A DNA stretch of 64,000 nucleotides from Octopus vulgaris (Eukaryota): contig OX597819.1 of NCBI GenBank assembly GCA_951406725.2, forward strand, positions 133,300,001-133,364,000. The letters run 5' to 3'. This document shows positions 42,210 to 63,605 of this stretch, piece by piece. Positions within the stretch are counted from its first letter, which is position 1. Every line of letters begins with the position of its first letter. The notes under the pieces were generated by a model. That model was not told where the DNA came from, did no database searches, and saw only the letters and a list, made by a program, of their open reading frames with translations. The translations under genes were made by a program, and so were the position numbers.

Positions 42210-42229
42210 TATATATATATATATATAAT

Positions 42230-43250
<1,021 letters not shown>

Positions 43251-54048: not shown

Positions 54049-57913
<3,865 letters not shown>

Positions 57914-57914
57914 A

Positions 57915-60063
57915 AATATTTCTACTGAATGTAGGAGGGCTGCTGCGCGGAAACTGTAAAAAGAAAATTTCATTCCTGAGAGACCTTGTGACATGCAATC
58001 AAGCTATATGCATGGCACTCACAGAAACGCATCTTGAACCCGATATAGGTGATGCAGAAATACACATGCCGCAATATGCAGTCATACGCACAGATAGAAA
58101 AGGGAGGAGCCATGGTGGAGTTGCAATGTACATCCGAGATGACCTCACGCCCCAGGTCCTGCTGTCATATTCAAACTCAGTATGTGAAACTCAAATTGTA
58201 CACATAAGAGAACTGAATATCGTCATATGCACTACATATCGCCCACCAGATGCCCCAAAACACTCAGGCATGTTTGAAGACTGCCTAACAAAAATAGGAG
58301 AAGTCCTCACCAACCTTGAACAGCACAACAGTGTATTCTTCATGGGTGACTTTAACCTCCCCAATGTGGAATGGCCTGGGGGGCAGATGCTCCCAGGGAT
58401 GACACACCATCAGCAGGCACAGGTGGAGTCCCTGCTCCATCTCACAAATGCCTCTTTCATGGAGCAAATAGTTCTGCAACCAACAAGGGCAGATAATATA
58501 CTGGATCTCTGCTTCACAAACAATATGGATATTATCCATAATGTTAATGTGATGCCGACAATGATCTCGGATCACAACATAATAGAGCTGTCTATGTATG
58601 GAACAAAAGCCCCCGCAGACACACAGCCTATACGAAGCACCCACCATCTCTCCAACTTAAACTTTCATAAAGCCAACTGGAAGTCGATTGAGAAAGAGAT
58701 CCTCAAACAGGATTGGCCTGAATGTCTCTCCACACCGGACATAAACATGAAACACAAACACTTCATGTCCATAATACAAGCCATATGTGACAAATATGTA
58801 CCAATGTGCAGGGCCACCACACACAAGAACAAAAACAGGATCCCTAGAGAAAGGAGGATTCTTATGAGACGACGGACAAGGATTGCAAACCGCCTGAGCA
58901 AGCACACCAAAAGTGGTGAGAAGTCTCGGCTCGAAAGAATGCTAATGGAAACTGAGAAAAGTCTACATCAGTCCCATGAAAAGGAGAGAGCAGATAAAGA
59001 AGATTGGGTAATAGAAAATATAAAATCAAACCCTAAAGCTTTCTTTAAGTTTGCCAAAGAGACAGCCACAGTGCACCAGAGAATAGGACCTCTCTTCCAA
59101 AAAGATGGCTCTCTCACAGGAAATCCCACAAGGATAAGTGAAATACTGAACGAACAGTTCCAAAGTGTGTTCACTACGCCTCTAGGACACAGGCAAGTAA
59201 ACAACCCAGAAGAATTCTTTGCCACTTTACCTGCGGCCAAAGAGACAAAAATTGAGTACATCAACATCGAAGATGATGATATCACACTAGCCATTGATGA
59301 GATTGACACAAACTCAGCTGCTGGACCTGATGGATTCCCAGCGATCCTTCTCAAATCGTGCAAACGAGCCCTTGCAAAACCGCTACAGCTTCTTTTTCAT
59401 AGCTTTCTTGCAAGTGGTAAGTTCCCAGTCAAACTGAAAGAGGGGTAATATGCCCTATCCATAAGGGAGGTAGCAGAGCAGATGCTAAAAATTATAGGCC
59501 TATCTCTCTGACCTCACACATCAGCAAAGTCATGGAACGAATAGTCCGTAAGAAACTAATCATGTTCCTTGAAGAAAATGACTTACTGTCTGACACCCAG
59601 CATGGATTTCGACCAGGTAGAGGCTGCCTAACACAGCTCCTGCAACACTATGACTGGGTGTTGAAACAGCTACTAAATGGCTCAAATGTGGATGTAATAT
59701 ATCTTGACTTTGCAAAAGCCTTTGATAAAGTCGACCATGGTATGATCTGTCACAAACTGCGTGGTCTCGGCATAGGCGGGAAACTTGGAGAGTGGCTGCA
59801 CAACTTCCTAAAAGACAGAAAACAGGCAGTTGTGAGCAATGGAGCCACCTCCAAGGAAACGCAAATAACAAGCGGTGTCCCACAGGGCACTGTCTTGGGG
59901 CCACTGATGTTCATAGTGGTCCTTTCAGACTTGCCTTCAGTTGCTGCGATGACCACCCTTGCTAGCTATGCAGATGACACAAAAGTCTCCCACGCAATAC
60001 AAAACCCTGAAAATATCGCGCATCTGCAACATGAGCTGGACACAATATACAGGTGGGCTGAGT
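57915..60063 (+). mobile_element. CR1-group LINE family B (relative of family A), endonuclease through RT, no own 3' end
   Basis: ORFs 57988-59448 and 59532-60068; ends at WAE after YADD. Confidence 0.88.
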
Positions 60064-61426
60064 CATAATATGCTGAACTCCAACCAGCATGGATTCCGTA
60101 ATGGGAGAGATTGCCTGACGCAGCTACTGCATCATTTTGATGACATTTTGAGAGCCTTGGGAGAAGGTTCCAACACTGATGTCATCTACCTTGATTTCAG
60201 CAAGGCCTTTGACAGGGTTGATCATAAGATCCTTCTGAGAAAGCTGTCCAATATTGGTGTCACTGGAAAGCTGCTGCAGTGGATCAAGTGCTTCCTGTCT
60301 AACAGAACCCAACATGTTGTAGTCGAAGGAGTCAAATGCAGCCCAGCCAAAGTCAGCAGTGGTGTCCCACAAGGTACTGTGTTGGGCCCACTTCTCTTCA
60401 TCATCTACATAAATGATATTACTGACACCATCAAATACAGTAACATCAGAACCTTCGCTGATGATTCCAAGCTCCAGAAGGTCATCAATGGCATGGATGA
60501 CCGAATAAACCTTCAGTCAGACCTACTGGCTATTGTCCAATGGGCGGAAAAGAATAACATGTTGCTAAATGAAGACAAATTCGAACTGATCCACTTTGGA
60601 AGGGAGGACGCTCTGAAACTCCCATACTCTCTTCCTTCTGGAGAAATTCTCATGGCATCCAACAACATCAGAGACCTGGGAGTAACAGTGGACAACAACA
60701 TAAGCTGGGCTACACATATAAGCAGCAAAGTTGACATGGCCCGCAGAATGTGTTCCTGGATTCTCAGAACCTTCCAGTCGAGAGATTCCCACGCTATTAT
60801 CCTTCTCTTCTCCACTTTTGCCCGACCCCACCTTGAATACTGCTGTCCACTGTGGTCTCCCTACACAAAACAAAACATTATGAGAATTGAAGCTCCCCAA
60901 AGGTCAATCACAAAAAAGATAGATGGCATGTCAGACCTTGACTACTGGGGTAGACTAGAGAAGCTGAAATTGTATTCACTCCAACGACGCCGTGAACGCT
61001 ACATTATCTGTATGATGTGGAAAATATTCCATCAGCACTGTCCGAATGATGTTGGCATCACCTTCAAAATGCATCCAAGGCTTGGACCACGTGCCATCCG
61101 TCCAAACCAAAAATCTAAATCGCATCACATAACGACAATACGGTACAACTATTTCACCTCAATTGGACCCGCTCTCTTCAACATTACACCGGGACACGTC
61201 AAAAAAGAAACTGACCACACAAAATTCAAGAAGTCTCTGGACAAATTCCTTCAAACAATACCGGACAAACCACCCACACCCGGATATGTCTCCGCAAACA
61301 ATAACTCTCTGCTCGAATGGGCCTTGGTGCCCAAATCCTGAACTGAAAGACTTCGCCAGGTGGTGCTATTAAGTTAGACATGGCCTGGGCCAATACTGGC
61401 CAAAACCTTTCTAAGTTATTCTAAGT

Positions 61427-61428
<2 letters not shown>
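60060..61428 (+). mobile_element. CR1-group LINE family C 3' portion fused to family B
   Basis: Near-identical reverse complement of 54250-55605; (TTCTAAGTTA) tail. Confidence 0.9.
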
Positions 61429-61502
<74 letters not shown>

Positions 61503-61528
61503 TTTATATATATATATATATATATACA

Positions 61529-61584
<56 letters not shown>

Positions 61585-61603
61585 ATATATATACATATAT
61601 TTA

Positions 61604-61643
<40 letters not shown>

Positions 61644-61647
61644 TTTA

Positions 61648-61684
<37 letters not shown>

Positions 61685-61822
61685 TAAATATTAGGGAATA
61701 AATCCAAATTTACAGGGAAAAAAAATCAGATTTAGGATTAAATCCAATTTTATAGTAAAATATTATAAAATATTATTAGAGACAAAACCACTATTTTGCA
61801 AAACAAACAAGGAAAGACTTAA

Positions 61823-62626
61823 TCAATACATAAAATTTTCATAAATAGTCAAAAAAACCGCCACTACAATCGTTTCTTGTCTTGATCGACAATCTTCAGG
61901 TGGACTTCCAATCTTCGGTACCTGGTCCAATTCAGCACGATTCTTTTCTAAATGTTTAATGTGTCTCAATGAATTTGAATATATGGCATCAGGAACTTGC
62001 TGTTTGGATGTCTGATCTAAATTCAGAAGATGTGTTTTGTATTTCTCAGATGACTTATTTAGATACTTTTCAAAATGAGATCGATTCACTTCAGGTAAAT
62101 AAGGAGAAGGAGAAATATCCCTTTTCTCAAATGATTCCCCCCAAGTTTTTGTGAAAAAGTCTGTTTCTCTTTTAGCTAATCGTGGATCATTCAAAACAGC
62201 TGGTAGATTAACAGTAGCATTGTAAATAGTCCATTTAAACTGATCTTGAACTACAGAAGGTTCTTTATTACTGGTCAAGTGTGGTGATGAGCATTCACTG
62301 ATACCAGTTTTGAAATTTTGCGGAAATCCACTGTTACGTCCATAGCCTGATCCAGCATAGACATGGTCCCGGACAACATGATCTTCATAGTCTTTGTCAC
62401 TTACACCTTCTAGGGGTAAGGAAGGGCACACCTCATTTACACCATATCGACAAACGTAAGATCCACCTTCTTTGGAACAATGAAAACTCCGCAGATGATA
62501 ACAGAACTCCTTTGGAGACTTGAAATGTCCAGTTTTTTTGCAGACAACACAGACTTTCCATTGACTTGGAATCCCTGAATTGCTTTGGCTTGTCCATGGT
62601 TGAGAATTCAATGTAGATGATGCCAT
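61823..62626 (-). pseudogene. VPS54: Uninterrupted 5' fragment (238 codons) of VPS54 (GARP complex subunit) fused in frame to 29 codons of the hammerhead module; probable retrocopy
   Basis: DQFKWTIYNATVNLPAVLNDPRLAKRETDFFTKTWG..PYLP..ELDQVPK matches the VPS54 N-terminus as I recall it; invertebrate-type Cys/His region EGGSYVCRYG..CPSLP; similarity stops at 61913. Confidence 0.88.
61861..61903 (-). ncRNA. Minimal type I hammerhead ribozyme at the 3' end of the VPS54 retrocopy
   Basis: CCAC-CTGAAGA-TTGTC..GACAA-GAAAC-GATT-GTA-GTGG. Confidence 0.85.
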
Positions 62627-62696
62627 GTCATGTCAGAGTAAATCATGCAGACCTATTATTATTATTATTATTATTATATATGTGTGTGTATACATA

Positions 62697-62734
<38 letters not shown>

Positions 62735-63006
62735 ACTCACACATTTATGTATGTATGCATATGTATGTACTTGTAGGGAAATGCGGATGAATATAAATTA
62801 AATTTTATAAATTAATAGTTTTCATTTCTCACTTAAATGCAGACAAGATTTCTTGAATGATGATGTTTTTCCATTTTTCTTCGTATTTATGTAGTTTATG
62901 GCATGTTTTCCACCATCTCAGCAAACAGTCCAGTTTCAAGATAATCGTTGATGCTCCATTTTCCTTCGGATCGCCAAATATATAATATATAAAATTTTAT
63001 ATAAAA

Positions 63007-63303
63007 TATAAAATTTAATTTATATTCATCCGCATTTCCCTACAAGTACATACATATGCATACATACATAAGTGTGTGAGTGTGATATATATATATATAT
63101 ATATATATGTACATATGTATACACACAAAAGAATCGTGCTGAATTGGACCAGGTACCGAAGATTGGAAGTCCACCTGAAGATTGTCGATCAAGACAAGAA
63201 ACGATTGTAGTGGCGGTTTTTTTGACTATTTATTAAAATTTTATGTATTGATTAAGTCTTTCCTTGTTTGTTTTGCAAAATAGTGGTTTTGTCTCTAATA
63301 ATA
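63007..63303 (+). mobile_element. Inverted, internally deleted second arm of the VPS54-hammerhead retrocopy
   Basis: 63007-63126 is the reverse complement of about 62683-62809; 63127-63161 is the last 35 nt of the VPS54 piece; 63162-63303 is the hammerhead module. Confidence 0.85.
63171..63213 (+). ncRNA. Minimal type I hammerhead ribozyme
   Basis: Same sequence as 61861-61903. Confidence 0.85.
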
Positions 63304-63516
63304 TTTTATATATATATATATATATACATATATTTATATATATATATATATATATATACATATATTTATATATATATATATACATATATATATATACATA
63401 TATTTATATATATATATATATACACATATATTTATATATATATATATATACATATATTTATATTTATATATATATATATATACATATATTTATATATATA
63501 TATATACATATATTTA

Positions 63517-63605
<89 letters not shown>

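Follow-up and report, generated by a model that had tools for sequence, protein, structure and literature searches.

Layout of the VPS54 insertion

The window analysed here is a stretch of 64,000 nucleotides of Octopus vulgaris DNA. Close to its right end, a unit of about 1.6 kb (about 61678-63310) joins VPS54 sequence to a Penelope-like element (PLE) and constitutes a two-armed insertion of this PLE family. Two LINE-like copies in opposite orientation lie to its left (54465-57455 on the - strand and 57832-61420 on the + strand). The + copy is apparently chimeric: from about 60060 it continues as sequence that shares 99% identity with the - copy. Its frame is broken near 59448. The PLE insertion lies within the (TA)n tail of this + copy, with one (TA)n target run on the left, 3' of the LINE copy (61421-61677), and another on the right (63311-63603), both with approximate bounds. 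No target-site duplication is readable within these (TA)n flanks.

The long arm lies on the - strand and spans 62979 down to about 61678. Its 5' end is the 3' part of VPS54 exon 1 (62946-62979; parent at G000:C11:56355198-56355165, where GTCGGT follows). Exon 2 comes next (62347-62945), consisting of 5' UTR with microsatellites and the ATG at 62626, and it is spliced at both ends, the parent (G000:C11 near 56350193-56349608) having AG before it and GT after it; this copy differs from the C11 parent by one substitution and by repeat-length changes. One or more VPS54 coding exons (62045-62346), whose parent copy is absent from the assembly, are followed by a likely 97-nt VPS54 exon (61948-62044) and by a 35-nt VPS54 block (61913-61947). 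This block is likely a micro-exon running from phase 1 to phase 0 and is the last host exon before the PLE splice acceptor. The arm ends with the PLE hammerhead exon from the element's splice acceptor plus a long 3' tail (about 235 nt, 61678-61912), whose alignment to L131, a complete copy of the element, from its acceptor shows one substitution and one inserted base. A chimeric ORF of 267 aa (61823-62626, - strand) is predicted from the sequence, with 238 aa from VPS54 and 29 aa from the PLE exon. The VPS54 identity of the coding part, already proposed in an initial annotation of this DNA, is confirmed, most of the named relatives listed carrying a VPS54 annotation and the top matches reaching 69% and 67% identity across the whole query.

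The two arms meet head to head at a 27-nt AT-rich filler (62980-63006), whose longest match to an arm is 10 nt, and the short arm begins past it on the + strand. It consists of an internal piece of the exon 2 UTR with no splice donor behind it (63007-63126), the 35-nt VPS54 block (63127-63161) and the PLE hammerhead exon from its acceptor, without the long tail (63162-63310, 149 nt identical to L131; hammerhead at 63171-63213). The + strand thus reads ..GTATACACAC/AAAAGAATCG..CCGAAG/ATTGGAAGTCCACCTGAAGA.., with the block lying between GTATACACAC and ATTGGAAGTCCACCTGAAGA, and the direct passage from leader to block to hammerhead that the initial annotation described is indeed present. In this arm, 736 nt of the long-arm RNA are skipped, and the join between the UTR piece and the block has a 1-nt (A) ambiguity. 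The inverted arms at 61764-61947 and 63127-63310 are 99% complementary over 184 nt, and 63007-63127 is the mirror of 62809-62683. The arms differ from each other in two substitutions, in an (AT)n run of 15 vs 12 repeats (13 in the parent) and in tail length.

The start of the second arm had been placed at 62683, and we correct it to 63007, since 62683-62979 belongs to the long (-) arm and matches parent exons 2 and 1. The "leader" does not form an exon of its own; parent exon 2 holds all of it, with its microsatellites, and the piece in the short arm is an internal part of this exon that begins at its nt 137. The suggestions that both 3' ends point outward and that the unit is a processed copy agree with our data: the exon 1/2 and exon 2/3 joins are exact when compared with the C11 parent, the introns having been removed precisely. 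The hallmarks of a LINE-type retrocopy are absent, as the unit ends in PLE tails within (TA)n, without poly(A).

The Penelope-like carrier and its paired arms

Among the 30 best loci of the hammerhead exon, 29 have TTTTAG directly before the exon, where it closes an AT-rich intron, and only the VPS54 locus has a host exon in this position. The complete copy L131 (G000:C19:1467100-1473519) is a 6279-nt unit with direct repeats 6279 nt apart. Its intron has a donor (GACTT/GTAAGT) about 1.8 kb before the TTTTAG/ATTGG acceptor, which lies just upstream of the hammerhead. Two frames overlap in it, one of 520 aa and one of 347 aa, and RT-like (YRDD) and YIG..R-like (GIY-YIG-like) motifs can be read by eye in them. 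A long Asn-rich stretch separates the RT-like and endonuclease-like parts, and a frame break of this copy falls within that stretch. Neither Pfam nor PDB gave a match for these ORFs; there are 5788 unnamed relatives, and among the eight of them scanned, one matched RVT_1 and two matched GIY-YIG, all below the curated cut-offs. The hammerhead block appears to be the pLTR exon of a PLE, and the anatomy seems to match that of EN+ Penelope-like elements.

The element's acceptor is used in RNA. Its own spliced leader is seen in RNA-guess contigs, joined at the equivalent of 61912-61915, and other sequences are joined there too. By exact pattern, 304 copies have the TTTTAG acceptor and are intron-retaining, while 529 have another base before the exon, which in the loci printed is mostly the element's spliced leader. 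L130 was considered as a host capture and rejected, since its upstream sequence is the element's own leader. The window itself contains a separate 5'-truncated, intron-retaining copy of the same PLE with the TTTTAG/ATTGG acceptor (42221-42764, - strand). Hundreds of spliced mini-elements of roughly 400 nt also occur genome-wide (e.g., L144, L146, and L154), frequently paired as nearly perfect inverted repeats around a centre of 14-42 nt; they look like a SINE-like derivative that would give hairpin RNA if transcribed.

The motif at 63171-63213 (CCAC-CTGAAGA-TTGTC/GACAA-GAAAC-GATT-GTA-GTGG), present in the long arm at 61861-61903 (- strand), was read by eye as a type I minimal hammerhead-like motif, with the CUGANGA and GAAA core, helices I and II, a very short helix III and an NUH site; we used for comparison the description of such PLE hammerheads in the available part of PMC4209133. 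Rfam has no match for it, and the MFE fold gives it no support (z 0.40). Both VPS54/PLE arms carry the GATT variant and the copy at 42319-42361 carries AATT, exactly as the initial annotation had read them. It had also taken GATT as a mark of a common source; GATT is a subfamily marker with 464 copies in the genome vs 713 for AATT. Loop III is palindromic in the AATT variant and not in the GATT variant; the GATT subfamily thus lacks the palindromic loop III thought to permit dimeric folding, yet it is young and abundant.

The common source itself is supported. We chose 38 loci as pairs and found both arm starts in 37, all of them inverted pairs, and 36 of the 37 have one long-tailed and one short-tailed end, as does the VPS54 locus. 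The arm variant is concordant in all 34 scorable pairs (23 AATT and 11 GATT, the latter for the most part retrieved with a GATT query; three pairs were unscorable), where random pairing of arms would yield concordance in about half. A common source for both arms is therefore the rule in this family. According to PMC11167929, a PLE protein (PAc) cuts and extends both strands, starting from two internal RNA sites, and such a pair of start sites would explain the long and short tails. EN+ PLEs are described in the portions available of PMC8557442, PMC3846280, and PMC11167929 as having an inverted 5'-truncated copy and an optional tail. The octopus element resembles what these portions describe in its head-to-head inverted arms, its tail at one end only, its AT-rich or (TA)n targets, its hammerhead and 5' UTR intron within the pLTR, its C-terminal GIY-YIG-like region and its Asn-rich linker (as in rotifer Penelope elements). 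It differs from them in the tail, about 85 nt in octopus compared with 30-40, and in arms that hold spliced host exons rather than element sequence. The inverted second arm of the VPS54 locus is thus, for the most part, ordinary PLE structure. The initial annotation had missed this point, together with the pLTR nature of the hammerhead block and the exact joining of VPS54 at the PLE splice acceptor.

A different view of the second arm would be that it is an artefact of assembly or of fold-back reads, and palindromes can indeed arise in long-read data. We regard this as most improbable: substitutions, repeat lengths and tails set the two arms apart, and their asymmetry is the one seen in 36 of the 37 family pairs. 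As far as the sequence goes, the VPS54 second arm is not a fold-back artefact.

The parent gene and the short arm

The VPS54 parent is located on C11, where exon 1 ends in ..CAACG/GTCGGT and exon 2 extends from TTTAG/ATTATC to GGATCAG/GTATG. The gene is broken in the assembly (G000:C11:55.6-56.37 Mb), with exons 1-2 lying past a gap, in opposite orientation, downstream of the last exon. In the 770 kb of C11 that we read, the exons for residues 1-94 and 330-997 are present, and those for residues 95-330 are absent, both from these 770 kb, which include three 100-N gaps, and genome-wide. The parent 35-nt exon was not found either, as genome-wide patterns matched only the two arms.

Evidence on the start of the block comes from DNA. 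A DNA contig from run X5 (depth 116.6) covers exactly 61948-62046 and ends one base before the 35-nt block; its first two letters (AG) fit an intron end as well as the end of the previous exon. A stop at 61948 suggests that the block begins at an exon edge, because a branch would be expected there from the parent intron, and, judging by how contigs are built, the second arm alone would not stop the contig at this base. The end of this DNA contig thus supports an exon edge at the start of the block indirectly, the parent exon being absent from the assembly, and the 3' edge would be given by the join to the PLE acceptor. The proposal that the block is an exon is thereby supported, indirectly, as regards its start. 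It had been compared with the matching vertebrate VPS54 exon, which we take to be a micro-exon of such length and phase; no source for VPS54 exon sizes was found in the open literature. Word shares of 0.74-0.82 are equally compatible with parent mRNA plus PLE and with the insertion. The RNA-guess runs X1, X6, and X10 do not cover the VPS54 part, which carries no weight because records are removed by a filter.

The initial annotation suggested that the arms are cDNAs of two RNA isoforms, or that one arm was deleted at an exon edge. For the former, the UTR would have been spliced to the 35-nt exon through a non-canonical donor, or through a weak AG/GTCTGC 22 nt further on with loss of those 22 nt. 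At the end of the leader piece, the parent reads CACAC/ACATAT and continues ACATATAT, with the nearest GT or GC at -10, +22, and +26. Neither possible cut has a GT or GC, and the +22 route needs a second deletion ending on the same base. The join at an exon edge is what splicing would give, and at one site the short arm, unlike the long arm, agrees with the assembled parent, consistent with two RNA molecules. However, the arms of two other captures described below, L142 and L143, also differ by one base each and still share one RNA structure, and their short arms end inside exons (none of the two at an edge). An origin of the short arm in a second isoform is thus unlikely. The single differing site also weakens another candidate that we considered, snap-back copying of the long-arm cDNA as the source of the leader piece; an allelic or later change could likewise account for it.

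The reading that we consider probable is a two-armed PLE insertion of an RNA in which 5' exons of VPS54 were joined, likely by splicing, to the PLE acceptor. Both arms would likely stem from this same chimeric RNA, and the short arm would likely have lost its 736 nt through a template jump that landed at an exon edge by chance, which is close to the second suggestion of the initial annotation. In such a sequence of events, the element's intron (GACTT/GTAAGT ... TTTTAG/ATTGG), just upstream of the hammerhead, would provide the acceptor, whose use in RNA is observed, and host exons ending at a GT donor would be joined exactly to it, as seen at five other loci and as presumably occurred for VPS54. 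The element protein could then bind the RNA through the PLE exon and cut both strands of the (TA)n target, as published PLE biochemistry suggests, and both strands would be extended from the two internal RNA sites, giving one long-tailed and one short-tailed arm. The left cDNA would have reached exon 1, while the right cDNA would have taken in 34-35 nt of host sequence, halted, and continued with 120 nt of the 5' UTR before being joined head to head with the left one, with the 27-nt filler between them.

The family offers similar cases. We examined 20 plain, intron-retaining PLE pairs, namely those short enough to fetch from the list of 304 TTTTAG copies, and six of them show an extra piece or an internal skip, in five of the six directly at the centre. 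We selected these six by eye; several other pairs are harder to decompose because the intron contains internal repeats. Their junctions have 1-7 nt of microhomology or a short filler, and none is GT-AG. Odd central pieces in 6 of 20 plain pairs favour a template jump in the VPS54 short arm, whose structure is alike in that a 120-nt upstream piece occupies the centre, 736 nt are skipped and 1 nt is ambiguous. Several observations speak against the jump. Landing at an exon edge has a chance of 0.75% (for a uniform point, four known edges and the 1-nt ambiguity), or perhaps 1-2% by our estimate if unknown edges and short truncations are allowed for; the microhomology at the VPS54 junction is only 1 nt; and both the VPS54 donor and any source PLE are absent from the assembly. 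In the predicted RNA fold (MFE only), the jump take-off is not paired with the landing site, which falls within the 3' strand of a predicted UTR hairpin.

The low chance of coincidence could instead suggest that the edge is mechanistic, the reverse transcriptase stopping at exon-exon junctions or having used a processing intermediate that starts at the exon. In the pair L145, one arm does start 2 nt inside the PLE exon. Nevertheless, neither of the two other two-armed host captures stops at an edge, and the spliced mini-element pairs printed retain part of the leader on both arms, so that we hold this explanation to be quite improbable. A later deletion of DNA would leave the same sequence as a template jump. 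Capture and two-armed insertion would have been the same, but the short arm would once have held about 920 nt of host sequence, of which 736 nt were lost afterwards from an unstable inverted repeat. Long near-perfect inverted repeats with short spacers are unstable, the left break adjoins (AT)n/(CA)n repeats, and there is 1 nt of microhomology. On the other hand, the odd piece lies at the centre junction in five of the six jump cases in the family, just as it does in VPS54, and this suggests that it arose during insertion; little time has passed since, as the arms have hardly diverged; and a deletion leaves the exon-edge coincidence equally unexplained. We therefore regard a later deletion as rather unlikely, and a template jump during insertion as the probable cause.

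Host transcripts at the PLE acceptor

VPS54 is not the only host gene joined to this acceptor. Searches with patterns having other bases before the acceptor gave 6 + 7 matches, which correspond to the VPS54 locus, one copy with the element leader and eight other loci; a VTAG pattern gave two matches, neither of them a host capture. Parents were sought for five of the eight loci, and in all five the capture ends at a GT donor: GTAAGT in PNPT1, GTTTGT in a membrane-protein gene, GTATGT in the parent of L143, GTAAGG in that of L142 and GTAAGT in the paralogues of L187. The PNPT1 retrocopy (L184, L223; G000:C18 near 34523036-34523560) has six spliced exons, corresponding to six exons of the parent on C4, with the donor joined to the PLE acceptor, a long tail and apparently one arm. 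One captured gene other than VPS54 shows 98% identity to a protein of Octopus bimaculoides. At L129 (G000:C15:67915780-67917200), the acceptor follows about 1.2 kb of spliced mRNA from the multi-copy membrane-protein gene, Ig-like by eye, and the inverted PLE arm is short. L142 (G000:C21:12715082-12716061) and L143 (C10:40052736-40053622) are two-armed captures in which spliced host transcripts contribute sequence to both arms, and the L143 capture includes an exon derived from another repeat. Non-element sequence also lies directly upstream of the acceptor exon or leader at L125, L128, L181, L153, L156, and L180.

RNA data contain loose ends at the acceptor as well. One of three could be mapped, to a genomic exon ending in GTATGT, and the other two have no exact match in the genome. 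A 2248-nt RNA-guess contig (run X10, record 14) joins other sequence to the PLE acceptor, and its end has no exact match in the genome. Capture through splicing is thus well supported: at several genomic loci host mRNAs join the PLE exactly at its acceptor, and they likely ride along as gene copies.

Whether the joins are made in cis or in trans is a separate matter. At none of five parent loci did the 40-119 kb past the host donor contain a sense acceptor of the same subfamily; two of these loci run into gaps, two are multi-copy gene families and one comes from RNA of a possibly different animal. For the PNPT1 parent, there is no cis acceptor in the 48 kb before a gap in which the next exon probably lies; for the L143 parent, none in 52 kb up to a gap; and for the L142 parent, which belongs to a multi-copy cluster, none in 99 kb without gaps. 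Two 98% paralogues of the membrane-protein gene have only older fragments in 40 kb each, and the locus of the RNA exon has, in 119 kb without gaps, only older copies lacking the acceptor. Intronic copies that were lost, are polymorphic or are unassembled would account for the missing cis acceptor no less well than trans-splicing, since selection would presumably soon remove an exon trap from such genes. It is possible, if doubtful, that an active octopus PLE trans-splices exons of host pre-mRNAs onto the acceptor of its pLTR intron and then retrotransposes them as two-armed, hammerhead-tagged fragments, repeatedly and site-specifically, with no element in the parent gene.

Host exons are also spliced into a mobile element and retrotransposed in the 5' exon capture of SVA elements, for example in the MAST2-SVA subfamily. 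SVA differs in being non-autonomous and L1-driven, in its cis mechanism and in having no inverted arms. The available part of PMC9340088 mentions SVA exon trapping in passing. For LINE-1, 5' chimeras with mRNAs have been described with proposed trans-splicing, together with a cis-spliced RAP1GDS1/L1PA2 case (bioRxiv 10.1101/2025.02.02.635956, in the portion available). As described there, host first exons are joined from their donor to the acceptor of a retroelement, most parents lack an intronic source element and the downstream introns are long, all of which resembles our observations. The octopus joins differ in involving another retroelement class, a single fixed constitutive acceptor each time, two arms and no poly(A). 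In Adineta vaga, according to the accessible part of PMC3846280, a pLTR enables the PLE machinery to mobilise a host gene in trans, with an inverted pLTR present, as in octopus. There, however, the gene keeps its introns between direct pLTRs, whereas in octopus the introns are removed and the PLE acceptor is linked to the host donor.

The Octopus vulgaris repeat annotation in PMC13282606 reports recently active Penelope families and, in its available portion, does not mention retrocopies or hammerheads; a retrozyme preprint does not mention octopus. In the main texts of open papers, we found no description of host exons being captured by splicing at a PLE acceptor.

This capture route matters more than the inverted arm, which is itself ordinary PLE structure. 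The captures are natural marked substrates, implying that any RNA ending in the PLE exon of roughly 150-235 nt can be mobilised, and, with both arms coming from one RNA source, they provide a direct test bed for the mechanism of PLE insertion. If the joins are made in trans, the idea of LINE-1 trans-splicing would extend to a second class of retroelements, in which the acceptor is single and defined. Truncated retrocopies and long inverted repeats can arise by this capture route from octopus genes, VPS54 and PNPT1 among them.
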